IMG/VR virus record: IMGVR_UViG_3300022538_000960
Span: 1 to 64,000 of that record
DNA from: a virus
Reading direction: 5' to 3' (one strand)
DNA: 64,000 bases
The position numbers and the translations under genes were made by a program. Below, piece after piece: positions 410-19,034 of this stretch; position 1 is the stretch's first letter; every line of letters begins with the position of its first letter. The notes beneath the pieces are model-generated. The model was not told the DNA's origin and did not search any database. It saw nothing but the letters and a program-made list of their open reading frames with translations.

Positions 410-850
410 TTACACGGAATTCCCTTGGTTTCTCCTATTTATTTTGCCACTCCTATGGCGATTGGTAATTAATTCACAGTAGTCGAGGAATTCATTGAGA
501 GTCCTACGGCCCTTGATTGTGTTACATTCATGACAAATTATGGCAATGTTGTTCTTATCAATGAACCTCTCGTTATCTAGCCGGTCAATGGTTGGGCTAT
601 TAGGCATAGTCCTTCCTTTACCCGGTGACCAATCAAGCTTGCACTTGCATAGATAACAATGATTCACGGATTTGATGATATCCGTAAGTTCATCAATTGT
701 TATCCGCATTTCGATTCCTCTCCTACGATGGGATCCAATTGTGCCTTGGGCCCAGGCTGTTCTTGGATGCGCCCGCTTCCATTTCCGACCGTATACTGTA
801 CTCTTTGCTGGCACAACTTTCCCATCAATTCTCTCAATCCTTCGTTTCAA
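410..850 (-). CDS. HNH/EndoVII-like endonuclease (family A, copy 1)
   Basis: CYLCKC...SPTIDRLDN...NIAIICHECNTIK; TTG start behind AGAAAGGAGG; paralogous to 9392 and 29537. Confidence 0.8.
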   Translation of the reverse strand: MKRRIERIDGKVVPAKSTVYGRKWKRAHPRTAWAQGTIGSHRRRGIEMRITIDELTDIIKSVNHCYLCKCKLDWSPGKGRTMPNSPTIDRLDNERFIDKNNIAIICHECNTIKGRRTLNEFLDYCELITNRHRSGKINRRNQGNSV

Positions 851-2924: not shown

Positions 2925-3053
2925 TCAGTTATAGATATAAGTATTGTTGATTGGATATGCCATGTCATGCATGATCTCGCCCTTCTCCAACCTCATCTTC
3001 CCATAGTTAAGACAGAATACGAAGATGAGGAACGGCGGTGATTTCCAATACAT
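2925..3053 (-). CDS. Small hypothetical protein (42 aa), not in ORF track
   Basis: TAAGGAG SD then ATG; MYWKSPPFLIFVFCLNYGK... Confidence 0.5.
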   Translation of the reverse strand: MYWKSPPFLIFVFCLNYGKMRLEKGEIMHDMAYPINNTYIYN

Positions 3054-3077
3054 CAGATCTCCTTAAGTTAGAAGGTT

Positions 3078-3131
3078 GCCATCCTATGGCTACTCTAGTT
3101 TACACTCTTAAGAAGAGGCCATCCTATGGCC
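3078..3131 (-). repeat. Two copies of the hairpin motif GCCAT-AGG-ATGGC
   Basis: gccatcctatggc at 3078-3090 and 3118-3130, both intergenic. Confidence 0.8.
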
Positions 3132-3141
3132 AATTTGATAA

Positions 3142-3351
3142 CTACTCACCATCAACATTCGGCTCAATCCTCGACTCAATCCTGGTATTGACGTTGTTCA
3201 ATACCTTGTGAGTCAGAGTCAAGCTCTTGAGAGTCAAGCGATTGGCTCTCGATGTCACTGCATGAGAAGCAGACATCACTGCCTTCTCAATCTTCGGCTG
3301 ATTCTCGTCACAGAAATCAGCAGCTTTCCTGATAAGGTTTCCTAACTGCAC
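3142..3351 (-). CDS. Hypothetical protein (69 aa)
   Basis: GTG start behind TTGAAAGGTGGTGA. Confidence 0.65.
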   Translation of the reverse strand: MQLGNLIRKAADFCDENQPKIEKAVMSASHAVTSRANRLTLKSLTLTHKVLNNVNTRIESRIEPNVDGE

Positions 3352-3393
3352 CTATATCACCACCTTTCAATATGTTACAGGTTCATGATTACA

Positions 3394-3507
3394 CTACTCC
3401 TTCCACATCCAAAGGAGCAGCATTGCCATTACTGCACATACCAATATCCAATCCACATCGCGTAGCACTATGTGTAGGTTGGATACCAGTAACCATATGT
3501 TACTCAT
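3394..3507 (-). CDS. Small membrane peptide (37 aa), not in ORF track
   Basis: TTGAAAGGAGGTGAA SD; MSNIWLLVSNLHIVLRDVDWILVCAVMAMLLLWMWKE. Confidence 0.6.
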   Translation of the reverse strand: MSNIWLLVSNLHIVLRDVDWILVCAVMAMLLLWMWKE

Positions 3508-3545
3508 CTACTTCACCTCCTTTCAATAGCATAGATGATTACATC

Positions 3546-3716
3546 CTATTTCTTAGGATCGATATCATCCAGATGTAAGATCGTATCAATCCCATTTCTT
3601 ACGGCCAGTAAAGCTTTCCTTCCTATCGGATCAACTACGTGATTCATGAATCCGCAATAATAATCAATAAGCTTATTCACTTTACTGACCACATTGGATT
3701 TCAATGTCTTTTCCAT
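3546..3716 (-). CDS. Small hypothetical protein (56 aa), not in ORF track
   Basis: TTGAAAGGAGGTGAA SD; MEKTLKSNVVSKVNKLIDYYCGF... Confidence 0.65.
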   Translation of the reverse strand: MEKTLKSNVVSKVNKLIDYYCGFMNHVVDPIGRKALLAVRNGIDTILHLDDIDPKK

Positions 3717-3747
3717 CTAATTCACCTCCTTTCAACATGATAATGGA

Positions 3748-3900
3748 TTATATCTTGGTAGCAAGATAACACACTATTGCAGCACCTACTGTGAAGTAGG
3801 GATGCCTTATAGCATAAAGTATTATATTAAAACTAAACTTTATGATATAATAGATAGCAACAGCGACGAACATCGGTATCCGATATATCATCTTCAACAT
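3748..3900 (-). CDS. Small membrane protein (50 aa), not in ORF track
   Basis: GGAAGGAGGTGG SD; two hydrophobic segments. Confidence 0.6.
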   Translation of the reverse strand: MLKMIYRIPMFVAVAIYYIIKFSFNIILYAIRHPYFTVGAAIVCYLATKI

Positions 3901-4050
3901 CCCATCCACCTCCTTCCAACAGTATAAGGTTTATATTTAGACGTCGGGCATGAAACGAAATTCTCAATTCCTCTCTATATACATCCTGGACGTCAAATTA
4001 TCCATCCTCATTTCTGATCCCTACGCGCGAAAATATTGTGGAAGATTTTT

Positions 4051-4123
4051 TCGTCAAATCGGAGATTTTGAACTATAACATATGTAGGAAATAAATTGTG
4101 TCAGGATGGATTTGAACTATAAC
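4051..4123 (+). promoter_or_regulatory. Tandem putative promoters (TTTGAACTATAAC x2) at the strand switch
   Basis: Motif at 4067-4079 and 4111-4123; TCGTCA lies 17 bp upstream of the first TATAAC. Confidence 0.6.
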
Positions 4124-4202
4124 ATAAATATACGAGTGGAGGGCACAGCCACACCTGACGACTATGCCCTGGAAGAAAAAAAGAGGAAGGGGGTGAAAAG
4201 AG

Positions 4203-4403
4203 ATGAACGTTTGGATCATAAAACACTTTCCCGTAACCGGGGAAGCCATAGTGGTTGACAAGTGGTTCGGAGATGCCCTTGATACCGCTGCATCAAAAGA
4301 TTCAGCTGACGGTCGGGTTCATGCTATAGCTATGGAAGGAAAAGAGAAACAGATGCTGGATATGGCACGGGAGCTGGAGAAAGAAGAGCAGAAGAACAAT
4401 TAA
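4203..4403 (+). CDS. Hypothetical protein (66 aa)
   Basis: SD AGGGGGTGA; first rightward ORF. Confidence 0.65.
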   Translation: MNVWIIKHFPVTGEAIVVDKWFGDALDTAASKDSADGRVHAIAMEGKEKQMLDMARELEKEEQKNN

Positions 4404-4428
4404 CCCATTAATTTGAACAGGAGATTCT

Positions 4429-4569
4429 ATGTCTGACAAAAAGTCCGTTCTTGGAAGGCTGTGGAATGGTATTCGTAATGTTGGGATGGTTGTAGCTATC
4501 CCCGTAAATCTCCTTTGTCACTTTGGGAAGTATGTGTTTAGTAAAGACTTTTGGAAGGATGGAATATGA
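4429..4569 (+). CDS. Small hypothetical protein (46 aa), not in ORF track
   Basis: AGGAG SD; its TGA overlaps the protease ATG (ATGA). Confidence 0.55.
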   Translation: MSDKKSVLGRLWNGIRNVGMVVAIPVNLLCHFGKYVFSKDFWKDGI

Positions 4570-5573
4570 ACCTAGAAAATGTAAAGGCTTTGGGGTTGGT
4601 TGACCTCCGCGACCTGTATACCGAAGACTTATTGACCCGGTCTGGTGTGGTGGGCGTTGGAATAGGAACCAAAAAAACGAAGGGGATCGACACCAACAAG
4701 CTCGCAATAATAGTATATGTGAAGAAGAAGCTAAAACTTGTTGATCTCAATGATAGAGATAAGATTCCTAATATATTAAATTCCCGATGGGTTGCCTTCC
4801 CTACGGATGTCGTCCAGGTTGGTGAATTTCGGGCCCTATCTAGGACAGACAGGGTTCGCCCATGTCCTGGAGGCATGAGCATAGGACATCATAAGATAAC
4901 CGCCGGGACCTTTGGATTCGTGGTGAAAGACACGGATAGCGGCACAAAGCTGATCCTGAGTAATAATCACGTCCTGGCAAATTCTAATGATGCCATGGTT
5001 GGTGACGCCATTCTACAACCGGGGCCCTATGATGGTGGGATCCTAAGTGACAAGATAGCCGGGCTCCTAAGATTTATCCCTATACAATTTGCCGAGGATA
5101 CCTGCCCGATGACCAATATTTATATCTGGCTCGGGAATCTCTTTGCAAGGCTGTCCAGGAGTAAGAGTCGGCTCTATGCCAAGAGGCAGATTGAGAACTA
5201 CGTTGATTGCGCGGTTGCCGTTCCGGATCCTGATGATGTTCTTCCTACAATTTTGGAGATAGGAGAAGTGGCGGGAATAAATGAGGATGTTTCTGTCGGG
5301 ACGAAACTTAAGAAATCTGGAAGGACCACAGAACTTACCTTCGGCCACGTCCAATCAATAGGAACGACCGTGATGGTAAATTATGGCGGGAAAAATGCCT
5401 TATTCGTTGATCAAATAATCTCTGATGTGGGATCCGATGGGGGTGATTCCGGGTCGGCAATCCTGGATGACGATAATAAATTTGTAGCTCTCTTATTCGC
5501 TGGTGGAGAAGGGACTACCATAGGGAATCGGGCCAGGTTGGTCATGGATTCTTTGAATATCTCGATTTTATGA
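4566..5573 (+). CDS. Trypsin-like (PA clan, Nal1-like) serine protease
   Basis: ILSNNHV (His), VDCAVA (Asp), GGDSGS (Ser), KSGRTT, and an N-terminal pro-like domain. Confidence 0.85.
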   Translation: MNLENVKALGLVDLRDLYTEDLLTRSGVVGVGIGTKKTKGIDTNKLAIIVYVKKKLKLVDLNDRDKIPNILNSRWVAFPTDVVQVGEFRALSRTDRVRPCPGGMSIGHHKITAGTFGFVVKDTDSGTKLILSNNHVLANSNDAMVGDAILQPGPYDGGILSDKIAGLLRFIPIQFAEDTCPMTNIYIWLGNLFARLSRSKSRLYAKRQIENYVDCAVAVPDPDDVLPTILEIGEVAGINEDVSVGTKLKKSGRTTELTFGHVQSIGTTVMVNYGGKNALFVDQIISDVGSDGGDSGSAILDDDNKFVALLFAGGEGTTIGNRARLVMDSLNISIL

Positions 5574-5616
5574 CAAAAATCTTCGACTGGCGAGAGAATA
5601 AGGCCGAATAGGAGGA

Positions 5617-5904
5617 ATGATGATATTTCGTTGGGCCAAGGATCACTTCTTTACCAAGTCCCTGGAATTCGATAAGCTCTATCATTTCGTAGGTGGAGGT
5701 TGGTGGTTCGCAATATTATTTATCATAGGCACCCCCACATTATGGTGTCTTCTTGGTTCATCCTTCTTTTCCCTCCTATGGGAAATCAAGGATGGATTGA
5801 AGCATAATTTTATATCTTCTGAATCAAAAGAAGGATTCAGCTGGAAGGATCTCCTTTGTGGTATCCTGGGTGCAGTCTTATTTTTCATAATCAACCTACT
5901 ATAG
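5617..5904 (+). CDS. Membrane protein (VanZ/YfiM-like motifs)
   Basis: DKLYHF...WEIKD...FSWKDL with three hydrophobic helices. Confidence 0.55.
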   Translation: MMIFRWAKDHFFTKSLEFDKLYHFVGGGWWFAILFIIGTPTLWCLLGSSFFSLLWEIKDGLKHNFISSESKEGFSWKDLLCGILGAVLFFIINLL

Positions 5905-5916
5905 AAAGGAGGGAAA

Positions 5917-6075
5917 ATGTTCGTATGGACTGATAGGAATTGGCAACTGAGGCCAATTTCGAATTGTGCGAAGGGATGCTGAATTCTGGCCATAGGATGG
6001 CTGCATTTAAAGGGAGAAAAAATGAAAGTGACAATTTTAGATCGGTTTAAGTTTCTCATTTTTAACAAACTGTAG
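5917..6075 (+). pseudogene. Small ORF with an in-frame TGA at 5980-5982
   Basis: Strong SD AGAAAGGAGG; the frame continues past TGA to TAG 6073. Confidence 0.35.
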
Positions 6076-6095
6076 TACTCTTGGCTGGAGGAAGT

Positions 6096-6404
6096 ATGTT
6101 TGGAGAGATCTTCGTATTAACAGCTGCTCAGACATTCATCATGGCATTTGTCATAGGCACCGCTGCATTCATCATCACGAAATCCAAATTATTCGAGAAT
6201 TTTCGTGACCAAATTACCCACCCATTTTTCAAAAAACTTATAAATTGCCCTTATTGCCTCAGCTTTTGGCTGGCGGCACTGTGGATAGGACTCTATTTCT
6301 TCGAAATCTTCCTGGCACTGGCATTGTTGATATTTCTGATTGGAGGCCTAGGTGGCATCGCTGCAATCCTGATCACATGGATATGTAAGAAGGCAGATCT
6401 ATGA
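6096..6404 (+). CDS. DUF1360-like membrane protein
   Basis: LFENFR...LINCPYCLSFW motif with TM helices. Confidence 0.65.
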   Translation: MFGEIFVLTAAQTFIMAFVIGTAAFIITKSKLFENFRDQITHPFFKKLINCPYCLSFWLAALWIGLYFFEIFLALALLIFLIGGLGGIAAILITWICKKADL

Positions 6405-6414
6405 GAAAATACAA

Positions 6415-6615
6415 ATGAAAAAACTCTTCAGAGACATACTGACATCAGATGGAAAGAAGATAAGCCTAGGAAGAGTATCATTCTGCATCGCTTTCATTAT
6501 ATCTATGATAATGTATGTCCTCAATGGTGTCATTTCCGCATCCATGATCACCCTCTTGGGATTACTACTTGGGTATGGAACATTATCGAAGGTTCCAGGA
6601 ATTAAAAGGGGATAA
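6415..6615 (+). CDS. Two-TM membrane protein, holin-like
   Basis: DG.KISLGR followed by two TM helices and a basic tail. Confidence 0.5.
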   Translation: MKKLFRDILTSDGKKISLGRVSFCIAFIISMIMYVLNGVISASMITLLGLLLGYGTLSKVPGIKRG

Positions 6616-6616
6616 T

Positions 6617-7600
6617 TTGAGAGTAAACAAAAGTAAAACCTTATTTAACCTGGTTCTGTTATTTTTTCTTCTGGCAAATTCAGCCTATAGTGCAGACCAG
6701 ACAGTTCATACCGCAGCATTTTTTGACCGGGATGGACCGGGAACAACGTCTGCCAATTTTTTGAAAATCGGAATAGGGGCTAAAGCCAGGGGTATGGGCG
6801 GTGCCTTCGTGGGTTTAGCCGATGATGCTTCTGCTATCTTTTGGAATCCTGCCGGTCTGTCTCAGCTCGGCTCTCCCCAGGTCATGTTTGTACATAACCT
6901 GTGGGCACAGGATGTAAGACATGAATATCTTGGTTATGCTTTGCCCATTGATACAAAGAACACTGTGGCGGTTGCCGTTATGTTCCTTCACATGGGTGAA
7001 ATTTTGGGATATGATGAGAATGATAAGCCCACCTCATTTTTCTCGGCCTACGATGCGGCCATGCTTTTAGGATACTCCAGAAAAATCTCCTCACATCTTT
7101 CCTTAGGTTGGACAGCTAAAGGCATTTTAGAGAAGCTGGAAGATCAGAAAGCGCAGGCGGTAGCATTTGATATGGGACTTTTTTACGATTCATACATTCT
7201 CTCTTTTGGTCTCTCTTTAAGAAACTTGGGAACAAAATTGAAATTCATGGAGAAAGAGCATCCTTTGCCCACAGACTTAAAAGTTGGAATTGCCTTCAAG
7301 GCTTTGAACAATCACCTTCTTCTAAGCACAGATATAGACTTTCTCACTGATACCTCGCCTGTATTACAGCAAGGAATTGAATGTAATTTTCAAAATGTTT
7401 TGTTTATAAGAAGTGGTGTCGAGTATAAGACCCAAAATCAGAGCTTGGGAAACTCGACCAGCCCAGCTGTAGGAGGGGGCATACGAATTTCAAAGTTTCA
7501 ATTTGACTACACCTATTCTTCCGTGAAACCCTTAGGGGACCTGCACAACTTCTCGCTGATTTATAGATTTAATGATAATTTAAATAAAAATGGGAAATAA
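6617..7600 (+). CDS. PorV/PorQ (UPF0164)-family outer-membrane beta-barrel
   Basis: Signal peptide, then ANFLKIGIGAKARGMGGAFVGLADDASAIFWNPAGL, amphipathic strands and a terminal HNFSLIYRF. Confidence 0.85.
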   Translation: MRVNKSKTLFNLVLLFFLLANSAYSADQTVHTAAFFDRDGPGTTSANFLKIGIGAKARGMGGAFVGLADDASAIFWNPAGLSQLGSPQVMFVHNLWAQDVRHEYLGYALPIDTKNTVAVAVMFLHMGEILGYDENDKPTSFFSAYDAAMLLGYSRKISSHLSLGWTAKGILEKLEDQKAQAVAFDMGLFYDSYILSFGLSLRNLGTKLKFMEKEHPLPTDLKVGIAFKALNNHLLLSTDIDFLTDTSPVLQQGIECNFQNVLFIRSGVEYKTQNQSLGNSTSPAVGGGIRISKFQFDYTYSSVKPLGDLHNFSLIYRFNDNLNKNGK

Positions 7601-7734
7601 ATGGAAATTTCATCATTTTTTGCCAATTTTTTTCATTAAATATCCAAATTTTGTCAATTTCATGGTAATAAACAAGGAAAATTTGGCATTTTTATTCATA
7701 ATATTATATTTTTGGATCTGAATGGAGGTAATTT

Positions 7735-8409
7735 ATGTTGTATATAATCGGGGCGAGCGGCCACGGCAGGGTTGTGCTTGATGTCTTAAATGCCATGCGG
7801 GAATTTTTTTCTGGAGAACCATTACATCCAATGACGATGCCCATACCAGAATTGTATACCGATAAAATTTGTTTTGCCGATCAAAATTCAGAGCTGGCTG
7901 GCAGATACCTGGATGGGCACAAGATTCTATGTATGAAAACGTATGCCTTACATGATGTCAGTTTCTTTTTTGTTGCCATTGGTGATAATGGAGTCAGACA
8001 GAAAATCTATGATGAATTGAAGTCGCGGGGCTACCCCACGGGTGTTCTTACAAGCCCCTTTGCCTATGTATCTCCAGAAGCAACCATAGGAAATGGAACA
8101 TTGATCAATCATGGGGCAATTATTCAACCGGGGATCCTAATTGGAGAAAATTGTATAATCAATACTGGCGCCAAGATAGATCACGACTGCAAAATTGGAA
8201 ATCATGCGCATATTTCACCGGGAGCAACGCTGTGTGGAAGCGTCCATATAGGGAATAATACAATGGTGGGGGCGGGAACAATCATAAAACCTGGTGCATC
8301 AATTGGCAGTAATTGTTTTATTTCGATGGGTTCCAAGATTAAATGTGATATTCCTGATGGATATATTGTGAATACCAAAGGGGTGATCAAAGAAAGGAGC
8401 AAATTGTGA
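7735..8409 (+). CDS. PglD/NeuD-type amino-sugar acetyltransferase
   Basis: IIGASGHG, VAIGDN.VR, hexapeptide repeats and INTGAKIDHDC. Confidence 0.9.
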   Translation: MLYIIGASGHGRVVLDVLNAMREFFSGEPLHPMTMPIPELYTDKICFADQNSELAGRYLDGHKILCMKTYALHDVSFFFVAIGDNGVRQKIYDELKSRGYPTGVLTSPFAYVSPEATIGNGTLINHGAIIQPGILIGENCIINTGAKIDHDCKIGNHAHISPGATLCGSVHIGNNTMVGAGTIIKPGASIGSNCFISMGSKIKCDIPDGYIVNTKGVIKERSKL

Positions 8410-9383
8410 ATATTCTCGTCACTGGCTGTGCTGGATTCATAGGGAGCCATTTTTTGAAATACGTATTCAAAAATACAGATTGGAAAATTTTTGGACTTGA
8501 TTCAATAACATATGCTGGGCAATTAGAAAATATAGGTGACGAAATACTCGAAAATTACAGATTTAAATTTATTTACGATTCTATTCAAAATGTCCAAATT
8601 GTCGATAAGTTGATGTCCAAATGTGATTATTGTGTCCATTTCGCAGGAGCAACTGATGTTAATAGATCAATTGAAAATGCGGATGATTTTATTGATACCA
8701 ATGTTGGAGGAACGAAAAACATATTGGATGCGCTGAGAAAATATAATTTAAAGCGCCTTATCTATATCTCAACGAGTGAAGTATATGGCGCGGTGAAAAT
8801 CGACCCAATGACTGAATCTCATCCTTTGGATCCTAGATCTCCATATGCTGCAACAAAATGTTCAGCAGACAGACTTTGCCAATCATATATAACGACATTT
8901 GATGTCCCTATCACCATAATTAGACCATTTAATAATTATGGACCTAATCAGCATCCAGAAAAATTGATACCTGGCGTTATTACATCAATATTGCAAGGGA
9001 AGCCGGGGAGAATATATGGGAGCGGACAAGCTGAAAGGGACTGGCTTTTTGTCAAAGATAATGTACGAGGAATATTTGAAGCAATGATAACTGACGTTGC
9101 ACACCAAAAAATAATAAATTTAGCAACAAATGAGTCTCATTCTGTTAATGAAGTCGTTGATATAATAATACAAAAAATTGGCGGATCAGTTGAACATATC
9201 GATGCAAGACCAGGGGAAGTATCGGCACATCGGGGGTCATACGATCTTGCAAAAACAATGCTCGATTGGTCTCCAAAGGTGAATTTAGAATCTGGCATAG
9301 AGCAAACCATAAATTGGTATAATCAAAATCAAGATTGGTGGAAAAGTAAACGAATCCAATTTGGATGTAAATTGGTCGAATAG
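8406..9383 (+). CDS. rfbB: NDP-glucose 4,6-dehydratase (RmlB-like)
   Basis: GCAGFIG, TYAG, VNRSI, STSEVYG, SPYAATK and NNYGPNQHPEKLIP. Confidence 0.85.
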   Translation: MNILVTGCAGFIGSHFLKYVFKNTDWKIFGLDSITYAGQLENIGDEILENYRFKFIYDSIQNVQIVDKLMSKCDYCVHFAGATDVNRSIENADDFIDTNVGGTKNILDALRKYNLKRLIYISTSEVYGAVKIDPMTESHPLDPRSPYAATKCSADRLCQSYITTFDVPITIIRPFNNYGPNQHPEKLIPGVITSILQGKPGRIYGSGQAERDWLFVKDNVRGIFEAMITDVAHQKIINLATNESHSVNEVVDIIIQKIGGSVEHIDARPGEVSAHRGSYDLAKTMLDWSPKVNLESGIEQTINWYNQNQDWWKSKRIQFGCKLVE

Positions 9384-9391
9384 GTGAGAAT

Positions 9392-9952
9392 ATGATTAAA
9401 CAATGCATTATGTGTAAATTGCATAAAGATGTTTCAGAATTTTATCGAAAAGGCGAAAATCGAAAAGGTAAGATACATTATGCATCTTATTGCAAAAAAT
9501 GTGATGCTATTCGGAGGATGAATTACTACAAAAGTAATGAAAAGATTGTCAAACGGAAAGCTAAGGAATACCGAGAAAAGAATAAAGAAAAATTAACCGC
9601 ATATAGACACAAAAATTGGATACGGAAATGGTGTATCGGGACAATTAATCATCATAGAAATTGTGGCTATGTATTAAAATTTACACTTGATGATCTTTAT
9701 AATTTGGCAATGAATACAAAAAAATGTTTTTATTGTGGTTGCGATCTCAAATGGTATCCAGGAAAACTTCAACCTTATTCCCCAACTTTGGATAGAATCG
9801 ATAATGGCAAAGAATTAGAACGTAATCAAATTGAAATTATATGCAGAAAATGCAATTCAACAAAACAAGATAGGAATTTTCATGAATTTATAAGATATTG
9901 CATATCTATTTCTAATAAATTTAAAAATTCCATATTACCAATGGAGTCTTGA
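9392..9952 (+). CDS. HNH endonuclease (family A, copy 2)
   Basis: N-terminal CxxC..EFY..CxxC; SPTLDRIDN...ICRKCNSTK. Confidence 0.85.
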   Translation: MIKQCIMCKLHKDVSEFYRKGENRKGKIHYASYCKKCDAIRRMNYYKSNEKIVKRKAKEYREKNKEKLTAYRHKNWIRKWCIGTINHHRNCGYVLKFTLDDLYNLAMNTKKCFYCGCDLKWYPGKLQPYSPTLDRIDNGKELERNQIEIICRKCNSTKQDRNFHEFIRYCISISNKFKNSILPMES

Positions 9953-9953
9953 G

Positions 9954-11030
9954 ATGATTAGATACGTATATCCGGAACTTCCAGATCTTTCGGAAATATC
10001 ATTTGATTTACAAGACGCATTACAAACAGGATCAGTTACGATGTGCTCACAAGTTGGACAATTTGAAAATGAAATTGCTAAATTTTTAGATGTTCCATAT
10101 GCCCTTTGTATGTCCAATGCCACGGCATGTCTGATGCTCATGCTTCGGAACATAGATGGAGATATTCTTGTTCCGTCTTGGACTTTTCATGCCACTTTGG
10201 CTGCATGCTGGTGGAATAAGCTGAAACCAATATATGTAGATATAGATCCAAAAACGTGGACCATTGATGTAGAAGATGCTCAAAGAAAAATGACACCGAA
10301 TACCAAGGCGATTCTGGCGATCAACATATTCGGATTGCCCCCAGATGTTGACGATTTGGTGGAGTTTGCTGATGCAAATAAAATTAAACTATTTTTTGAT
10401 TCCAGCCAGGGTATTGGATCAACATATCATGGCAGGCGCATTGGCAGTTTCGGAGACGGTGAGTGTTTTAGTCTGAGTGCGACCAAAGTACTTACAACGG
10501 GGGAGGGTGGCATTTTTACTACTTCTGATAAATATATGTATGAGTCAATGAAAGCGGGAAGACATTGGGGGGATCCCGGAGTTTCTTTCAATGGAGGAAC
10601 CTATAATCCCAGGACTCCCGGCCTAAATGGTCATATGACTGAATTTCAGGCAATTTTAGGTAAATGGGGACTAAGTCATTTAGACCGTTGGATTGAGGAG
10701 AAACATAAGCTCGTGGACATATATAAAAAATATCTTGGCAACCATGTGGTATATCAAGAAATTCCTCCTAATAGAACAACCACTTATAAAGATTTTTCAA
10801 TTTTAGTGCCACTGCAAAAGCATGAAGCAGTAATGGAAAATTTACTTAGAAATCTAATTCAGTTCAAGAATTATTTCTATCCTTGTCACTGGACCGATGC
10901 TTATAAAAATGGTACCAGCCTGCCGATTACCGAAGAATTTTATTATAGATCCATTTCCCTTCCAATATATAATAGACTCCCGGAAAAGGAAATAAAGTTC
11001 ATATGCGACGTCGTTTTGGAGATGTTATAA
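9954..11030 (+). CDS. DegT/DnrJ/EryC1/StrS PLP-dependent sugar aminotransferase
   Basis: SNATACL, DSSQGIG and FSLSATKVLTTGEGG (PLP lysine). Confidence 0.92.
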   Translation: MIRYVYPELPDLSEISFDLQDALQTGSVTMCSQVGQFENEIAKFLDVPYALCMSNATACLMLMLRNIDGDILVPSWTFHATLAACWWNKLKPIYVDIDPKTWTIDVEDAQRKMTPNTKAILAINIFGLPPDVDDLVEFADANKIKLFFDSSQGIGSTYHGRRIGSFGDGECFSLSATKVLTTGEGGIFTTSDKYMYESMKAGRHWGDPGVSFNGGTYNPRTPGLNGHMTEFQAILGKWGLSHLDRWIEEKHKLVDIYKKYLGNHVVYQEIPPNRTTTYKDFSILVPLQKHEAVMENLLRNLIQFKNYFYPCHWTDAYKNGTSLPITEEFYYRSISLPIYNRLPEKEIKFICDVVLEML

Positions 11031-11055
11031 TGAAAGTTTCAATAGGAGGATACAC

Positions 11056-12114
11056 ATGAGAGTTTTGGTAATCGGATTCTATGGAATGGGTAATACAGGA
11101 GACGAAGCTATTCTGAATGGATTAGTTGTAACTATGCGCAGAATTGATCCCGATATTGGAATTGATGTGGGGACGGAATTGCCATTTATATATTTTGGTG
11201 ATTATAATGAATGGAGAGGTGTCTCGTCATTAATGAAAGACGGCATTTATTATGACGTAGGATCTAGGTCGTTAACTAATTATGCCTTTGGAGAAGGAAC
11301 GGAGCGGATTGGATTGGTCATACTTGGGGGTGGTGGGCTATCAATTGGGTATGGGTATGGCCTGGTCATGCGTGCAATGGATGCGGGAATTCCTGTAATA
11401 AATATGGGAATTGAATATAGAAATGAATGTAGAACTTTCTCTTTATTTCATGAATTTCTTAAACGGTTTTCTGATATTGCGGTCCGATCTCGAGATTCGA
11501 GTAATTTTCTAACTTCTCTGGGAATTCATCACCATCTTACTTTTTGCCCCAGTTTGCAGGTTGATCCTGTAACGTGTGATCCATTGCCTGACGATTACAT
11601 AGTAATAACTCCGAGACGCACAAATGATTCTGACGATGAAATGCAAGTGCAGATCATAGTCGATAAATTGAAAGAATTGAACAAACCGGCGATTCTGATT
11701 CCATTTAGTAAATACGATTTAGCTGGATTCCCGATAGATATGAAAATTTGCGAAGAAGTGAAGTCTCAATATCAGAATTCATCTATAATTCCGAAACTTG
11801 ATGGATATAAACCTGGGTCATATAAATTTATTATTTCCAAAGCCTCTCTGCTTATAAATTCTGGAAGATTTCATGCATCCATATTCGCGGCGGAATTTGG
11901 GGTTCCAACAATCCATAGCTGTCCTGCGGACAGTGCGGACAAAATTTACAATTTTCTCTCTGAATTTGGAATTGAAAAACGCCACTCATGGGCAGATGGA
12001 TTTGGTCCCCCAGTTGATTTTGGTAGTTTGGAAAACAAAGATATTATGAATAGATTTCGTGGACTGGAAAAAATGAATTCGGAAATTCTAAAAACATATA
12101 TTCCCAGTTCTTAA
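11056..12114 (+). CDS. Polysaccharide pyruvyl transferase (CsaB/WcaK family)
   Basis: GFYGMGNTGDEAIL, GGGGL, VRSRDS and RFHASIFA. Confidence 0.85.
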   Translation: MRVLVIGFYGMGNTGDEAILNGLVVTMRRIDPDIGIDVGTELPFIYFGDYNEWRGVSSLMKDGIYYDVGSRSLTNYAFGEGTERIGLVILGGGGLSIGYGYGLVMRAMDAGIPVINMGIEYRNECRTFSLFHEFLKRFSDIAVRSRDSSNFLTSLGIHHHLTFCPSLQVDPVTCDPLPDDYIVITPRRTNDSDDEMQVQIIVDKLKELNKPAILIPFSKYDLAGFPIDMKICEEVKSQYQNSSIIPKLDGYKPGSYKFIISKASLLINSGRFHASIFAAEFGVPTIHSCPADSADKIYNFLSEFGIEKRHSWADGFGPPVDFGSLENKDIMNRFRGLEKMNSEILKTYIPSS

Positions 12115-12154
12115 AATTTTTTTGGAATAATTTTGACATTAACGCGGAAGGATA

Positions 12155-13075
12155 ATGAAAATTTCAATTATTTGTACTTTGTTTAATCGCTTAAGTTATT
12201 TGAAAATGCTGATGTGGAATATATTTAATTACCAAGATTTCAATAAATCACAATTAGAATTTATTGTTGTTGATGATGGGGGATCTCAAGATATTTTATC
12301 GTATTTGAAGACCGACTATGCAGGAAAAAATGTTCAGTACATCAGGACAAACAGAAAAGCGAGAGCTGGATATGGTAATCTGCCAGCTGGGCGAGCAATT
12401 CCCACAAATTTAGGTGTATCTTTTTCAAAAGGCGAAATAATTCTTATTTGTGACGCAGAAGATTTTATGTTAGACCCGAATCATTTGTCATTTTTTTGTG
12501 AAAATTTAGAAGACCCAAAACAAATTGCTGCGGCCAATGCAATGGAAACATTGACAATTGGCGAATTATCATATGTTAGAGAAAATTATAAAAATGTTTC
12601 ACTTATTAAAAAATATATAGCCGAACGCCGCAATGTGGATCTTTCTAGAGAGCATTATTTTGCTGGAAGACATTCTGGCTATTGGGCGCAACCCCGCGAA
12701 GGATTTGTTTCTATTGGAGGATTTGATGAAAGATTAATTGGTCTTTGCGGTGATGATTCTGAATTTAACTATAGGCTTAGAAAATTAAATTATACATATG
12801 TGCCTTCTCCTTTATTTATAGTACATAATTATCATGGGGAAAATGTCGGTGGACCTATGCGTCATTGGGGAGATGAGTTTAATAATGTAAATCAATATAC
12901 CCCCGAACTTAAGGCAAAGAATAGTAAATTTACAGAGAAACATAATGAGATGGGAAGAATAATTAATGCCGAACAAGACTCTGGAAAAAGACAACTTAAA
13001 TTACGGATGGGGGTAAAATTTTATGATGATGATATTCACATCGATTTATCAAGATACAAAAAGGAGAAACAATGA
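12155..13075 (+). CDS. GT2 glycosyltransferase (A)
   Basis: IVVDDGG, CDAED, GGFDE..G..GDD.E. Confidence 0.85.
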   Translation: MKISIICTLFNRLSYLKMLMWNIFNYQDFNKSQLEFIVVDDGGSQDILSYLKTDYAGKNVQYIRTNRKARAGYGNLPAGRAIPTNLGVSFSKGEIILICDAEDFMLDPNHLSFFCENLEDPKQIAAANAMETLTIGELSYVRENYKNVSLIKKYIAERRNVDLSREHYFAGRHSGYWAQPREGFVSIGGFDERLIGLCGDDSEFNYRLRKLNYTYVPSPLFIVHNYHGENVGGPMRHWGDEFNNVNQYTPELKAKNSKFTEKHNEMGRIINAEQDSGKRQLKLRMGVKFYDDDIHIDLSRYKKEKQ

Positions 13076-14040
13076 AAGTATCTATAACGATCCCAATTTG
13101 GAATCGGGCAGCATATCTTCAGTATTCGTTATATTTGTATGCGAAACAAACTATCAAGGATTTTGAAATTATAGTGATCGATGATAATTCGGATGATAAT
13201 CCATATGATGTGTGCAAAATTTTCAAGGATCATATGAATATCAGGTTTTTCAGATGCGGAAGAAAGGAAGACCAGTCCCTTCCTCAAGGTTGTGGTCCAT
13301 TGTTAAATTTTGCAGCAAAAAATGTAGCGAAAGGTGAGATAACAATCTATGCCGATCCAGAAGTTATGCCATTTCCCGATTTTGTGGAACAACACTATTT
13401 ATCTCATCAGCCCGGACATATTATTAAGGAACCAGACTTTATAGCGCCGGGGGTTCCTGGGAAAATTAGAAATCCAATAGCAATCGAAATGGAAACATAC
13501 TACAATATCAAAGGATTGACATTAAAAACATGGATTGAGCATAGAAACCTATTTGGAACTTTAGAAGGTTGGATGAAAGAGGGAAGAATAAAAGATATTG
13601 TCAGTATGTGGAATTGGATGTGGTCCATTATAATGAAATTGCCAAATGATCATACCGGGGAACATAACAAAGATTCCAGTTATAGAAATGGGGATCAGTC
13701 TTTTTGGGGGTTCCAAGGATCACAAGCAGGCTGGTCATACAGAACAGATAAATATGTTGAACTGAGAGGTTGGAATGAAGACTGTTCTAAGCTTGGCTAT
13801 TGGATGGCTGAAGATTGTGAATTTGGAGCAAGGATGAGGCGCGCAGGTATTCAGTCCATTGAAAATGCTAATATTCGCGCAATTCATTTATGTCATCCAA
13901 AAGCGACTATTGGTTCCGATGAAATGATAGATAACTGTGTCCGAGATCCATATGAACGAAATGAAGATTGTATTATTGGCAATGTCGGGCACAAGTGGGG
14001 TGATCCAGAGATTTTAAAAATTGAAGAGATTAAGTTGTAA
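13072..14040 (+). CDS. GT2 glycosyltransferase (B)
   Basis: IVIDDNSDD, ADPE, GWNE...AEDCE. Confidence 0.85.
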   Translation: MKVSITIPIWNRAAYLQYSLYLYAKQTIKDFEIIVIDDNSDDNPYDVCKIFKDHMNIRFFRCGRKEDQSLPQGCGPLLNFAAKNVAKGEITIYADPEVMPFPDFVEQHYLSHQPGHIIKEPDFIAPGVPGKIRNPIAIEMETYYNIKGLTLKTWIEHRNLFGTLEGWMKEGRIKDIVSMWNWMWSIIMKLPNDHTGEHNKDSSYRNGDQSFWGFQGSQAGWSYRTDKYVELRGWNEDCSKLGYWMAEDCEFGARMRRAGIQSIENANIRAIHLCHPKATIGSDEMIDNCVRDPYERNEDCIIGNVGHKWGDPEILKIEEIKL

Positions 14041-14063
14041 CCAAATTTAAATGGAGATCATGG

Positions 14064-14645
14064 GTGAGATTCGAAGAATCACAAAAAAGAGTAATGGCAA
14101 TGGGAGGACAGGATAATAGTTTAGATCTCGGTTATAGATATTTATATGATGTCGTTATGGATAGCCCAGATGGGGCTGTCGTCGAAATAGGCGTTTTGGG
14201 TGGAGTTGCCGCTGCCACTTTATGTGCTGCTGCAGAAGAAAAAAATGTTAAATATTATGGAATTGATCCGTGGGACATGTTAACTTCAAATGATCATTTG
14301 AGACATTTGGTTGGAGATCCGGTAAAAAATGAAGAACTGGCTAAAAAAACCATGTCTGAGTTAAAATTTACAAACTACGAATTCATTAAGGGATTTTCCT
14401 ATGATGTTGCAAAAAATTTTAACGAATCGATTGGATGTCTATTTATTGATGGATGCCATTGTTACGAATGTGTAAAAAAGGATTTTCTCCTATGGCAGTC
14501 CAAAATAGCTTTGAATGGCACAATCGTATTTCATGATGCAGGGTGGGATGGTGTTGGAAAAGTAATAGAAGGCATAGTAAAAAACGACCATAATTTTGTA
14601 GAAATACAAAACGTTCAAATTGAAACATATAAAAAAATTTCATAG
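14064..14645 (+). CDS. Class I SAM methyltransferase (Methyltransf_24-like)
   Basis: VEIGVLGG, GIDPW, FIDGCH.YE.V..D and IVFHD. Confidence 0.85.
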   Translation: MRFEESQKRVMAMGGQDNSLDLGYRYLYDVVMDSPDGAVVEIGVLGGVAAATLCAAAEEKNVKYYGIDPWDMLTSNDHLRHLVGDPVKNEELAKKTMSELKFTNYEFIKGFSYDVAKNFNESIGCLFIDGCHCYECVKKDFLLWQSKIALNGTIVFHDAGWDGVGKVIEGIVKNDHNFVEIQNVQIETYKKIS

Positions 14646-14660
14646 ATTGCAAGTGGTGTT

Positions 14661-15419
14661 ATGGTTCCAAAAATGTCTGTTGGAATTGATTTTTTCCATG
14701 ATAGGAAACCGTTTATAAAAAGTCTAATACATTCATTAAACTCGCAAACGTTTAGGGATTTCGAAGTAATATTTATGGATGATGGACCCGAATGTGGTGC
14801 ACTTGATGAATTAAAAAACCTAAAACATTTTTTTCCTATAAGATATTATTATGTGAATAGGAGACCAGAAGCGGAAACTTTGGAAAATCCATCATTTCTT
14901 GCATGTGGGAATCTTACAAATTTTGTTGTAGATAATATGAATTCGGATAAATATATAAGATGTGATCCAGAAGTGATACTACCACCAAATATATTGTATA
15001 ATTACTATATAGCTCTATATGTTTCGCTGTTACATAATATAAAGAATTTTTTTGTTTGCGGCAGATATTGTGCAGAAAAATCATCCGAAGAATTTTTGCT
15101 CCATAATTGGAATAATATTCCAGCTATGATGAAACATTGTGAATCAAATTGTCCAACAGATTGTGGATATTTTTCATGCATGGCAATATCTAAATCCGAT
15201 TTCCAAGATATTGGTGGATTCACCACAAATGAAAAAGGATGGGGAGGCATAGACCAGGAGTTTACAGCAAGAGCGACAAAATTAAAATATAGGCATCATA
15301 GTTTACCTATGTTAACTATTCATCAATGTCATAAAAGAAATAGCGACTATAAAATGAGTAGTGGTATCGATCATCCGATAACGAACCCAAAATTAACAAT
15401 TTTAGAATCAAATTTATAA
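14661..15419 (+). CDS. GT2 glycosyltransferase (C)
   Basis: IFMDDG, CDPE, IGGF...GWGGID.E. Confidence 0.8.
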   Translation: MVPKMSVGIDFFHDRKPFIKSLIHSLNSQTFRDFEVIFMDDGPECGALDELKNLKHFFPIRYYYVNRRPEAETLENPSFLACGNLTNFVVDNMNSDKYIRCDPEVILPPNILYNYYIALYVSLLHNIKNFFVCGRYCAEKSSEEFLLHNWNNIPAMMKHCESNCPTDCGYFSCMAISKSDFQDIGGFTTNEKGWGGIDQEFTARATKLKYRHHSLPMLTIHQCHKRNSDYKMSSGIDHPITNPKLTILESNL

Positions 15420-15427
15420 AATTTTTT

Positions 15428-16447
15428 ATGAACCCAATAATATCTGTGATATTGGAAACTGCGCGATATGGCGGTCTTGATTGGCAATTAAAACTGCTTG
15501 CAAACCAGTCATTCAAGGATTTTGAATTAATTCTTATTGATGGATGTTATAATGAACGAAAGGAATTTGTTTTAGTTCTTGCGGAAGAATTAAATATAGA
15601 TTTGATATATCTAGAAGAACAATTTCCATTTAAAACTTCGCATGTGCGTCCTTTGAATGTAAATACCTGCATGAAATTCGCAACAGGTAAATATTTTGTT
15701 TTTCTTGATGATTATCATCTTTTTCCAAATAATTTTTTGGAAGAGCATTATAAAATTTGTGAACACGGGTGTGGCGGGATAGTTCAGTGGCTTGGTATTA
15801 AATATGAAGATCAAATAGATTATTCGGAAAAGTCTCCAATAATTATTGATAAGGATCCAAGAATAGATTATTTTTTAGATCACATTAATGATTTTGTAAA
15901 GTTTGACAATTGGTATTTGGGCGTTCCTTGGGATTGGTGGTGGCCAAATTCTGTAAGCATCCCGGCTAAATATATACGAACAGTAAATGGTTTCAATGAG
16001 ATATATTGTGGGGGAAGTGGGGGAGAGGACAATGATGTTGCATATAGGATGTTTTCTACCGGGGCGAAATTTGCTTTCAATCCAATTTTAATTGCTTATC
16101 ATGTACAACATAGGAAGGATGATATTCCCATGCGAGAACCCCCTCATAGAATTGGATTAAATTCTGTACCAGATTGTAGTTTTGCTCATGATCGACGGCC
16201 ATTTACAAAGAATGAATATTGGCCGCATGGTGACCCTAATTTAATAGAAAATGATCAATTGTTTACATGGTTTGAATCCGGGTACAAACTTTTTCAATGC
16301 AAACATTGCGGCGAATTTGGATGTGTGGATGGGCACCAAATGTTGCAAAATACTAAAATTCGATATGCTCAAAACAATCAGATGCCACCAGATGAAATTC
16401 ATTTTTCTGACGGAACAACCCATAAATGTATAAACATAAGGAAATAA
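15428..16447 (+). CDS. GT2 glycosyltransferase (D) with C-terminal CxxC
   Basis: LIDG, FLDD, NGFNE..GGSGGED and CKHCG. Confidence 0.82.
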   Translation: MNPIISVILETARYGGLDWQLKLLANQSFKDFELILIDGCYNERKEFVLVLAEELNIDLIYLEEQFPFKTSHVRPLNVNTCMKFATGKYFVFLDDYHLFPNNFLEEHYKICEHGCGGIVQWLGIKYEDQIDYSEKSPIIIDKDPRIDYFLDHINDFVKFDNWYLGVPWDWWWPNSVSIPAKYIRTVNGFNEIYCGGSGGEDNDVAYRMFSTGAKFAFNPILIAYHVQHRKDDIPMREPPHRIGLNSVPDCSFAHDRRPFTKNEYWPHGDPNLIENDQLFTWFESGYKLFQCKHCGEFGCVDGHQMLQNTKIRYAQNNQMPPDEIHFSDGTTHKCINIRK

Positions 16448-16448
16448 A

Positions 16449-17015
16449 ATGAAGTATGAAATAATGAAAGAGCTATGGATTAAGCATCACCCTGATTGGC
16501 TTGGCGATATTCCGCAAGTAGAGTTTTTATATAATGCTGCGATGGATGCGCCCACAGATTCCAAATTTTTCGTAGAGATTGGAACCCAATATGGAGAATC
16601 GGCACTGATGTTAACTGCCGCCGCCGAAGATAAAGGACAAATTTTATATTGCATTGATCCATTTGATCTTCATTCTCAAGGCCAATCTCAGACTGAATTA
16701 ACGTTCCGTAAAAACATGGAAACAGTTGGTCTTACTAATTGGATTCTTATCAGAAAACTTGCGGAAGACGCTGCACCCACCTTTGAATTTTCAATTGCTT
16801 TGTTATATATAGATGGAAATCATAACTACGAGTACGTACTAAAAGATTGGGAATTATGGGCGCCGAAATTAATTCCTGGAGGTGTATTGATCTTTCATGA
16901 TCGTGATTGCGACGGCGTATCTAAAGTATTGAATCTAGTTAGACAAGATCAATTATTTTGTAATGAGAAAATTGGGCCCGATCCTTTGATTTCATTTGAA
17001 AGGAAAAAGAATTGA
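16449..17015 (+). CDS. Class I SAM methyltransferase (paralog of 14064)
   Basis: VEIGTQYGES, IDPF, YIDGNHNYE and GGVLIFHD. Confidence 0.85.
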   Translation: MKYEIMKELWIKHHPDWLGDIPQVEFLYNAAMDAPTDSKFFVEIGTQYGESALMLTAAAEDKGQILYCIDPFDLHSQGQSQTELTFRKNMETVGLTNWILIRKLAEDAAPTFEFSIALLYIDGNHNYEYVLKDWELWAPKLIPGGVLIFHDRDCDGVSKVLNLVRQDQLFCNEKIGPDPLISFERKKN

Positions 17016-17016
17016 A

Positions 17017-17916
17017 ATGAAGATTTCAGTGATTACGGTAGTTGCTAATAGGTTGGCATACCTAAAGATGCTAATGTGGAATTTATTTAATTATCAAGAT
17101 TTAGCTCATTTGGAATTCGAACATGTTATCATTGACGATGGTAGCATAGAGGATATTTTATCTTATTTGAAAACTAATTATTCCGGAAAAAATGTTCAGT
17201 ATGTTCGGACTAATAGAAAAGAACGTCGTGGTATGCCAAATGTCCCCGCCGGCCGCTCGATTCCTACCAATTTGGGTGTCAAATTTGCCCGTGGTGACAT
17301 TATATTAATTTGTGATGCGGAAGACTGCATGCTTGAACCTAGTCATTTATCCGAATTTTGTAAAAGAATTGGGCCAAATCAAATAATGGCAGCGATACCA
17401 ATTGAAACACAAAACGAAAATGACTTAATGTATTATGAAAAAAATTATAATGATCCATTGGGGTTTAAAAAATATTTGGAAGGATGCTATCCGGATTCAA
17501 TGCACCCGTCAAACATACCTCCGCATGATCGATTATATTCTATGATCGATGGAAATCTTCATTATTTGTACAGATGTTCAGGATATTGGGCGCAACGCAA
17601 GGAGGATTATATTTCTATTGGAGGATTTGATGAAGAAGCCTGGGGGATGGCCGGAGACGACTATGAATTATCTTATCGTCTGGACAAAGCAGGTTTTACA
17701 TATATTGCATCTCCATTGTACATAATACATATCTTTCATGGTCGAGGGATGGAAAGACATTCTTGCTCTGAAATCAACGAGGAATTGATCAAAGAGAGTA
17801 TGAAAATTCGCGATGGATTTTTTGAAAGAATGGAGAATAAAACGCTACCGATATCTATAAAATTTGATCCAAAGTTCCATTATGATGACGTTTACGTTGA
17901 TATATCGAAAGTGTAA
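17017..17916 (+). CDS. GT2 glycosyltransferase (A', paralog of 12155)
   Basis: Shares YLKMLMWN.FNYQD, GKNVQY.RTNRK, IPTNLGV and ILICDAED with 12155. Confidence 0.85.
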   Translation: MKISVITVVANRLAYLKMLMWNLFNYQDLAHLEFEHVIIDDGSIEDILSYLKTNYSGKNVQYVRTNRKERRGMPNVPAGRSIPTNLGVKFARGDIILICDAEDCMLEPSHLSEFCKRIGPNQIMAAIPIETQNENDLMYYEKNYNDPLGFKKYLEGCYPDSMHPSNIPPHDRLYSMIDGNLHYLYRCSGYWAQRKEDYISIGGFDEEAWGMAGDDYELSYRLDKAGFTYIASPLYIIHIFHGRGMERHSCSEINEELIKESMKIRDGFFERMENKTLPISIKFDPKFHYDDVYVDISKV

Positions 17917-17957
17917 ATTTGATACAGTGAAAGAAGTAAAACTATAAGGAGCTTAGT

Positions 17958-19001: not shown

Positions 19002-19034
19002 TTTTTCCAATGAAACTATAAATTTCAAAGATAT

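Follow-up and report, generated by a model that had tools for sequence, protein, structure and literature searches.

How does an outer-membrane barrel protein of the PorV/PorQ family, a family linked to type IX protein secretion (the T9SS), come to be encoded by a phage, and what might it do there? The question is raised by a 327-residue protein encoded at positions 6617–7600 of the DNA stretch analyzed here, referred to as the window, which comprises the first 64 kb (64,000 nucleotides) of the 98,001-bp IMG/VR virus record IMGVR_UViG_3300022538_000960, a linear record with a CheckV completeness of 38% and no terminal repeat. A preliminary description made from the sequence alone had presented the gene as an intact, phage-borne member of this family that was captured from a host, and had considered that it might serve as a receptor decoy, take over surface display, or form part of a surface-remodelling cassette. 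The gene is, with high confidence, a captured host barrel of the PorV/PorQ family on a real phage. The combined reading, in which this capture is joined to a role of the barrel in a glycan- or exosortase-linked step at the outer membrane, is one towards which we lean on balance.

Origin of the barrel gene and its borders

The gene, and the segment in which it was acquired, comprise the following features.

6613–7570, plus strand: captured segment, the one part of the first 20 kb for which cellular genomes show similarity at the DNA level (blastn and searches of whole metagenome-assembled genomes, MAGs)
6617–7600, plus strand: PorV/PorQ-family outer-membrane barrel gene with TTG start and TAA stop (7598–7600), 327 aa, from the open reading frame (ORF) and its translation
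6617–6691, plus strand: signal peptide, residues 1–25, with probable cleavage after AYS, read by eye from the sequence
7571–7600, plus strand: phage-specific 3' end, the last 9 codons (NDNLNKNGK) standing in place of the cellular G/A-S-E end, from the clade alignment and the end of DNA homology

The intact frame with a signal peptide that the preliminary description had claimed was borne out by the ORF, its translation, and the layout of the N-terminus. The longer program-made ORF from 6569 owes its extra length to an upstream in-frame TTG alone, and the onset of cellular homology at 6613, found by the same blastn and whole-MAG searches, agrees with a start at the TTG of 6617, which is preceded by the purine-rich AAAAGGGGA. 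N-terminal extensions do occur in 6 of the 23 proteins of the clade described below, and these resemble one another, not the phage upstream frame. The N-terminus itself, MRVNKSK-TLFNLVLLFFLLA-NSAYS/ADQ, reads by eye as a signal peptide with n, h, and c regions (basic residues, a hydrophobic run, and NSAYS/ADQ), a layout common to all 23 aligned clade members, and the AlphaFold2 (AF2) model places a helix at residues 5–24, followed by a low-confidence linker.

The search for cellular relatives returned 1837 homologous proteins among 4631 candidates, and among the best 120 of these 1837, which were inspected, 23 form a tight group at 65–91% identity, after which the next falls to 48%. The source of one close protein, P0003, assigns it the label Zixibacteria. 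At the DNA level three loci stand out: L001, a 3.3-kb metagenome contig with uninformative neighbours (89% nucleotide identity to the phage gene), which was the one close locus among the matches listed in a metagenome scan of at least 599 stretches; L081, a 24-kb contig from a MAG titled uncultured Ignavibacteria (89% nucleotide and 86% amino acid identity); and L082, a 112-kb contig from a second such MAG (78% and 71%, respectively). The latter two are chromosomal, with genes for citrate synthase, NDK, oxoacid:ferredoxin oxidoreductase, TsaD, and NAD synthase. Similarity between phage and cellular DNA is limited to 6613–7570, both in blastn comparisons with these three loci and in the whole-MAG searches, and the barrel is the only ORF that the phage contig has in common with L001, L081, L082, or any of the 10 cellular loci compared. 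Individual sequencing runs mark the same borders: a 1.8-kb contig of run X5 matches 6613–7563 at 96.2% and then passes into unlike, cell-type flanks, pieces in run X2, like X5 a sediment run, match the phage gene at 98%, and contig ends or loose ends fall at 6613 and 7563–7570 in runs X5 and X8.

In the phylogenetic tree, the phage protein lies inside a 24-row cellular clade (support 100/99) on a branch of 0.058, against a median of 0.1. Orthologues in the order to which the MAG belongs (34 species genomes) form a graded series of 86%, 71%, and then 44–49% in 10 genomes, with the next-best paralogues in the same genomes at 29–40% identity. Because the homology is limited to the gene, the protein is nested among cellular ones, and the gene elsewhere has cell-type flanks, the transfer ran from cell to phage and was recent. 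The gene thereby has both marks of a phage moron, namely phage genes on either side in one molecule (with the reservation that the contigs of run X1 break inside the gene, as discussed below) and a cellular origin, evident from the nesting and the gene-limited homology. The earlier claim of a captured host gene therefore stands, with 89–98% nucleotide identity to cellular copies, and the host lineage is probably a T9SS-bearing sediment bacterium of the FCB group, the related MAG records being labelled Ignavibacteria.

Two of the cellular copies have a feature of their own upstream of the barrel, where about 410 nt of non-coding DNA (L081 7120–7528 and L082 9211–9619) are conserved at 65–73% and the flanking genes differ. 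All frames of this region are closed, and it matches no Rfam family at gathering score. Neither the phage copy nor the more distant orthologues have it, and it could represent a leader or a regulatory region.

The soundness of the junctions bears directly on the capture. Run X1, a marine sediment run and the probable source, contains all sampled words, and its Logan contigs, from an assembly independent of that of the record, cover 3000–6903 and 6878–11000 with 0 mismatches at depths of 10.3 and 8.9. One contig without mismatches crosses each junction, so both of them (6613 and 7570) are bridged. The continuity across 6600 and 7600–7735 that the preliminary description had proposed to check thus holds at the junctions; inside the gene, however, the two contigs break and meet by a 26-nt overlap only (6878–6903). 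This break, together with the presence of the phage flanks and junctions in no run examined other than X1, is what an assembly chimera would draw on, in which the barrel gene joins two unrelated contigs. Such a chimera is nevertheless highly improbable: beyond the mismatch-free crossings and the similar depths, no cell-type copy of at least 88% identity was found in X1, the junctions match the gene borders on both sides, and both flanks are phage-like and have an endonuclease paralogue family in common, endonuclease VII/HNH genes at 410–850 (minus strand) and 9392–9952 (plus strand) flanking the barrel with 40% identity to each other (E 3e-29).

The captured copy looks functional from its sequence. 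The ratio of nonsynonymous to synonymous substitution rates (dN/dS) is 0.19–0.20 between phage and cellular copies and 0.22 between the two cellular copies, from four pairs, and most of the divergence behind these values may predate the capture, so that a low dN/dS is no proof of selection within the phage. Three changes (S33A, P71A, and S320D) are private to the phage copy, at columns where the other 23 sequences do not vary; each of those sequences has 0–5 such changes. The barrel body departs from that of the nearest cellular protein at 9 of 230 positions, and whatever else separates the two is found in the signal peptide, linker, plug, and replaced C-terminal tail. The gene might still be a passenger, acquired very recently by illegitimate capture, of no use to the phage and not yet eroded; the 96–98% nucleotide identity to cellular-type copies, the replacement of the 3' end at the junction, and the failure of pattern scans to find a close IMG/VR relative, hence the lack of any sign of retention across phage lineages, are consistent with this. 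We consider it quite unlikely in view of the clean insertion, which leaves start codon, stop context, and frame intact, 1 nt after the upstream stop and on the coding strand of the phage, and of private changes that are no more numerous than in cellular copies.

The same comparison bears on the possibility of a receptor decoy or superinfection exclusion, in which the barrel of the host would serve phages as a receptor, to be masked or diluted by the phage copy displayed on cells or shed vesicles. Lysogenic conversion through porins and Lom-type barrels encoded by phages is a known theme, and other outer-membrane barrels (porins, OmpW-like proteins, and autotransporter domains) are present in uncultured phage proteomes in BFVD. 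Mutants of Flavobacterium in T9SS and gliding genes gain phage resistance, according to passages of one report (10.1101/2020.10.02.323337). A barrel body nearly identical to the cellular copies would, however, present the same surface and not mask it, and conservation within the clade is highest (0.85–0.94) in the long loops, which are inferred to be outward-facing, unlike a surface shaped by an arms race. The 98 kb of the record showed neither an integrase nor a repressor, and so no sign of a lysogenic state. A decoy role is therefore unlikely.

Family membership, fold, and paralogues

The assignment of the protein to the PorV/PorQ family rests on NCBIfam model NF033709 (PorV_fam), matched at 202.2 bits (cut-off 90, E 1.6e-59) over model positions 1–326 of 326, and Pfam UPF0164 is likewise matched above its cut-off (33.9 vs 21.4 bits), with Pfam PorV slightly below (25.3 vs 27). 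All of the narrower equivalog models score under their thresholds: PorQ (NF033711), which is the top-scoring equivalog for the phage protein, at 136.3 vs 220 bits, PorV2 at 112 vs 325, and PorV (NF033710) at 101.6 vs 250. Other barrel models fare no better, with 15 bits for FadL/Toluene_X (PF03349; gathering cut-off 29.7) and 17.5 for PorP/SprF (PF11751; cut-off 22.3), and the orthologue at L090 scores 26.6 vs 90.55 on the PorP/SprF model TIGR03519. There was no PHROG match for the barrel protein.

An AF2 model built from an alignment of 95 homologues (pLDDT 89.7, pTM 0.84) shows a barrel of 14 main strands with a helical plug segment at the N-terminus. Its best Foldseek matches in the PDB are Flavobacterium johnsoniae PorV chains 8gl6_F and 6h3i_F (E 1e-17 and 1e-14; TMq 0.75 and 0.73), with FadL and TodX at a TMq of about 0.6, and VIA-align gives Z scores of 34.8 and 34.5 for PorV (24–25% identity, 278–283 residues aligned) and 32.2 for FadL at 12% identity. 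When the profile of the 95 homologues is compared with PDB sequences, PorV is found at E 9.6e-35 and TodX at E 4e-4 across 30 residues. The Z lead of PorV over FadL is 2–3 units, a margin that is small by itself, and it is the sequence that decides the family call. The preliminary description had named a best match to an unrelated barrel family such as plain FadL as grounds for giving up the assignment; by Foldseek, VIA-align, and profile alike the best match was PorV and not plain FadL. The hydrophobic-substrate channels FadL and TodX have the common barrel architecture (Z 28–32), yet are 12–19% identical. PorV, the T9SS cargo shuttle of F. johnsoniae (PDB 6H3I and 8GL6, chain F), is like the phage protein in being a 14-strand FadL-type barrel with an N-terminal plug and in belonging to the same broad NCBIfam family, and it differs in length (chains of 345–402 residues vs 327 aa) and in the equivalog score already given.

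Where in the family the gene belongs is best seen in the two related MAGs, G001 and G002, of 3.2 Mb each, which hold 9 and 10 genes above the NF033709 cut-off. Both encode a T9SS, with SprA at 720–733 bits (cut-off 200), PorU at 745 and 715 bits (cut-off 420), and 54 and 67 matches to type A sorting tails, respectively. PorV and PorU genes are linked in Bacteroidota. In the MAGs, PorU (G001:C14:38649-41873 and G002:C24:26013-29195) adjoins paralogues of 921 and 877 aa that are also the best, though sub-threshold, PorV matches there; a PorU gene beside a PorV-family gene is thus seen in both MAGs, and it is seen also in L101, a record treated below. The orthologues of the phage gene are located at G001:C44 and G002:C10, away from PorU. 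The best PorQ-like gene is a third paralogue at 179–185 bits, vs 115–124 for the phage-gene orthologues, and several other paralogues in the MAGs sit directly after cargo genes. In a 30-row tree each paralogue of one MAG pairs with one of the other, and the phage gene groups with G001:C44 and G002:C10 (support 99) within an 11-row orthologue clade (support 98). Neither the PorU-linked nor the cargo-linked lines fall in that clade, whose sister, with weak support (80), is the PorQ-like pair. From the equivalog scores, the paralogue tree, and the PorU context it follows that the gene is a member of the broad family and is neither PorV nor PorQ. Of the label given in the preliminary description, the PorV/PorQ family thus survives on NF033709 and the fold, and PorV proper does not, since the gene lies below the PorV, PorQ, and PorV2 cut-offs and PorU adjoins another paralogue. 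To PorQ, the barrel of the attachment complex that partners PorZ, the gene is closest by equivalog score and by its sister position, and it differs in falling below 220 bits where another paralogue of the MAGs scores higher. No PorZ gene neighbours the orthologues, the nearest thing being a weak PorZ-like match (46.6 vs 260 bits) about 7 kb off in L082.

The PorU-adjacent paralogues deserve a remark of their own. At G001:C14:35769-41873 and G002:C24:23110-29195, PorU is followed by a 921- or 877-aa protein that is a PorV-like barrel split by a large insertion, with the family matches at both ends of the frame.

These observations allow a takeover of the T9SS to be weighed, in which a PorV- or PorQ-like barrel from the phage binds C-terminal sorting domains or anchors the attachment complex and so alters which proteins are displayed. 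Family membership and the PorV-like fold speak for it, as do the full T9SS in the related MAGs, the paralogues that follow cargo genes there, and the viral contig L083 from IMG/VR, in which a cargo gene with a type A tail (TIGR04183, 30.1 vs cut-off 23) precedes a family barrel. Phage-encoded T9SS cargo has moreover been published (passages of PMC7468147). The gene under study, however, falls below all three equivalog cut-offs, it is neither the PorU-linked nor the best PorQ-like paralogue, its orthologues do not adjoin cargo genes, and neither a type A nor a type B cargo tail was found in the 98 kb of the phage record, which represent about 38% of the genome. We regard this takeover as doubtful.

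Orthologue loci and a possible role in the phage

The cellular orthologues point in another direction. Ten loci were compared, eight from the order (L087–L094) together with L081 and L082, by clustering the neighbouring proteins and naming representatives with NCBIfam; the barrel is placed in them as follows.

L088, L090, L091, and L092: barrel, then XrtA, then the exopolysaccharide (EPS) priming glycosylphosphotransferase, directly and on the same strand
L094: barrel, one 122-aa ORF, then xrtA
L089: xrtA 6 kb away across an inserted block
L082 and L087: barrel between an XrtA-system polysaccharide deacetylase and the priming transferase, with Wza-like, chain-length, and tyrosine-kinase genes ahead of it
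L093: locus ended by the contig end
L081: no glycan or exosortase neighbours

The barrel–xrtA loci span L088 5657–8038, L090 5888–7963, L091 6923–9179, L092 6812–9110, and L094 1779–4317. XrtA is identified by TIGR03109 (213.6/208) and the EpsH model TIGR02602 (212/105.55), the priming transferase by TIGR03025 (300.8/295.55), and the deacetylase by TIGR03006 (323 and 347 bits vs cut-off 276 in L082 and L087). In total, 8 of the 10 orthologue loci have xrtA or the EPS priming transferase, and no cargo genes adjoin the orthologues. Among 79 metagenomic loci of more distant homologues (28–39% identity), our own hidden Markov models, which were built on a single order and could overlook distant exosortases, found xrtA in none and one or more of four EPS genes within 6 kb in 1 of 79, with 32 of the 79 having at least 3 kb on both sides. 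The link to exosortase and EPS genes is, as far as these gene neighbourhoods tell, specific to this orthologue line. 'PorV' is then too specific a name, and the gene is best described as a PorV/PorQ-family barrel of an exopolysaccharide/exosortase-linked paralogue line.

In XrtA/PEP-CTERM exopolysaccharide systems, the outer-membrane route of PEP-CTERM proteins is left open in passages of Haft et al. 2006 (PMC1569441) and Veith 2020. The cellular orthologues sit directly upstream of xrtA and the priming transferase, or between deacetylase and transferase, and the barrel next to xrtA is a candidate outer-membrane partner of the PEP-CTERM/exosortase system. The main text of the literature searched yielded no description of a PorV-like barrel as a component of such a system and no link between exosortase/PEP-CTERM and PorV-type barrels; the link is seen in one bacterial order only. 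A search for PEP-CTERM signals gave no match in the phage record, the MAGs, or the controls alike and is hence uninformative.

On the phage, the genes around the barrel are the following.

4551–5573, plus strand: trypsin-like protease of a phage family (phrog_20754, E 1.9e-63), N-terminus not signal-peptide-like
5617–5904, plus strand: 95-aa hydrophobic protein in the same gene string, from the sequence
6081–6404, plus strand: 107-aa membrane protein, DUF1360/phrog_781, in the same gene string (PF07098, 22.9 bits vs cut-off 21; phrog_781, E 1.9e-5)
6415–6615, plus strand: 66-aa hydrophobic protein, from the sequence, with its TAA stop 1 nt ahead of the barrel start
7601–7734, plus strand: AT-rich intergenic gap of 134 nt with a promoter-like site at 7683–7710, from a consensus scan, which is not evidence of function
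7735–20424, plus strand: glycan-building cluster, context outside the capture, from Pfam and NCBIfam matches

The 95- and 66-aa proteins have no family match in Pfam, NCBIfam, or PHROG. Since the stop codon of the 66-aa gene precedes the barrel start by 1 nt, the two are probably co-transcribed and co-translated. The protease is 32% identical to a protein of LR756508.1, an uncultured phage record of 484 kb, and because it belongs to a phage family the left flank is phage DNA. On the right, the glycan cluster matches a NeuD-type acetyltransferase, a 4,6-dehydratase, a DegT aminotransferase, a pyruvyl transferase, family 2 glycosyltransferases (GT2s), and methyltransferases (Pfam/NCBIfam), and it has no DNA match to the related MAGs in whole-MAG searches, so that the enzymes next to the phage barrel differ from it in origin. 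Just 5' of its ATG, at 7700–7734, TATTTTTG fits by eye the TAnnTTTG motif, which is the -7 motif of Bacteroidota promoters. A lysis cassette made up of the small membrane proteins and the outer-membrane protein as holin and spanin was considered and rejected: the endolysin candidate (21935–22798) is 15 kb away, and the barrel is a near-identical host gene.

A role in a glycan step is favoured because the orthologues belong to glycan and exosortase loci and the barrel sits just upstream of the phage glycan cluster. We tentatively propose that the phage barrel sustains or boosts a glycan- or exosortase-linked outer-membrane step, a possibility for which the gene contexts are suggestive. The phage operon would yield the barrel alongside three small membrane proteins, Sec would export it, and the BAM machinery of the host would insert it; it would then supplement or replace the nearly identical barrel of the host, and the outer-membrane step for surface glycan or exosortase-sorted material would be kept running, or biased, through a long infection, from which the adjacent phage glycan cluster may benefit. 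A bolder version, in which the barrel upstream of xrtA is the missing outer-membrane partner of the exosortase/PEP-CTERM–EPS pathway and bridges type IX and exosortase sorting, and in which the phage took up precisely this component and set it in front of a glycan cluster of 14 enzymes of its own, with the result that a surface coat specified by the phage is exported or anchored by the infected cell, seems to us improbable.

Several observations weigh against the proposed glycan role and, in part, against the capture. The barrel was captured alone, and a search of 4 related genomes at E <= 1e-10 found nothing corresponding to the first phage glycan gene. The 134-nt gap with its promoter-like site suggests that the glycan cluster is a separate transcription unit, and no RNA run was among the runs listed as containing the stretch. 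The two closest MAGs have no full XrtA (best exosortase-like fragments 31–33 bits), and in the closest MAG locus, L081, the barrel stands without glycan neighbours, so that the exosortase link may be ancestral only. To these are added the possible age of the divergence behind dN/dS, the 26-nt overlap inside the gene, and the confinement of the junctions to X1. The surface-remodelling cassette of the preliminary description, which would join the barrel with the protease, the membrane proteins, and the glycan enzymes, gains indirect support from the glycan-locus context of the cellular orthologues; the capture of the barrel by itself, the protease N-terminus, and the gap between barrel and sugar genes speak against it.

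The phage, its relatives, and what the barrel adds

The record is that of an uncultured, jumbo-type myovirus, probably from marine sediment. Genes for terminase, portal, head protease, major head protein, tail sheath, and ribonucleotide reductase follow downstream on the strand of the barrel, with terminase, portal, major head protein, and sheath within 27.6–45.2 kb, and baseplate and virion proteins are encoded beyond the 64-kb window in the same record. The tail sheath resembles that of jumbo Bacillus phages such as 0305phi8-36. Directly after it, at 45185–48605, three consecutive genes all match phrog_9206, which is annotated as major head protein; their position makes tail-tube paralogues the likelier identity. 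Genes of endonuclease VII/HNH type occur at six or more places in the record (410–850 on the minus strand, 9392–9952, 21448–22023, 29537–30082, and 39795–40430, and in L095 9133–9825), some of them inside the glycan cluster and the structural module, and they look like a homing endonuclease family.

Phage-borne members of the PorV/PorQ family are, as judged from database scans, rare. The preliminary description had called for a search of viral databases for other phages with such a gene, and this search turned up two IMG/VR contigs and no credible INPHARED record. The IMG/VR scans rest on a few peptide patterns and can miss members: a scan with the single protein gave no pattern match, one with the clade alignment (A1) turned up 27 pattern matches, none of them a relative, and only the wider alignments (A2 and A4) recovered the two distant viral contigs, L083 and L084. 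A scan for related phages in which the site might be empty, with the protease as query, found no IMG/VR relative. In L084 (IMGVR_UViG_3300035698_024657, a 130-kb phage), a family barrel of 165 bits at 9917–10861 lies between a DNA ligase gene and genes for ribonucleotide reductase, RNA ligase, and RNase H, with PNK also in the neighbourhood, and its nearest homologues are 38–51% identical. In L083 (IMGVR_UViG_3300031873_001254), positions 7920–10834 encode a 695-aa protein with a T9SS type A tail and then a family barrel ended by the contig end; the contig also carries an amidase gene, a ParB-like gene, and DUF932, and cargo and barrel thus form a pair on a mobile element. Both barrels are about 29% identical to the window protein and lie elsewhere in the tree on long branches, and they are therefore independent acquisitions.

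INPHARED gave 3 weak matches in 50,697 records (MT836010.1, MT835954.1, and MT836897.1; L099–L101), which were considered as phage-borne copies and rejected as Bacteroidales-type chromosome fragments. Titled 'UNVERIFIED Bacteriophage sp.' and of human fecal origin, they hold SusC/D/E/F/G loci or PorU-PorV-IspF-MnmA, and no phage gene was found among their ORFs of at least 120 aa. BFVD contains no PorV- or FadL-like model (best TMq 0.40), and porin-, OmpW-, and autotransporter-type barrels are present there.

Lambda Lom and the lambdoid porins Lc and NmpC are phage-borne outer-membrane proteins. The present gene is like such proteins in being a host-derived outer-membrane barrel that serves as a phage accessory gene, and it differs in belonging to another fold family. 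Phage-encoded T9SS cargo is described as a unique occurrence in 'Cryophage' in passages of Bellas et al. 2020 (PMC7468147), and the likeness there is that of an FCB-group phage with type IX-related genes, the difference being that Cryophage, in those passages, has cargo with sorting tails where the present phage has a membrane barrel. No description of a phage-borne PorV/PorQ-family barrel was found in the main text of the literature searched. Host-type outer-membrane proteins and, in rare cases, type IX cargo are known from phages, and a PorV/PorQ-family barrel adds to these. As the gene has 89–98% nucleotide identity to cellular copies, the donor and the probable host lineage of an uncultured jumbo phage can be named. 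The orthologue group found beside XrtA is a candidate for the outer-membrane step of PEP-CTERM/exopolysaccharide sorting, and this may matter more than the phage finding.

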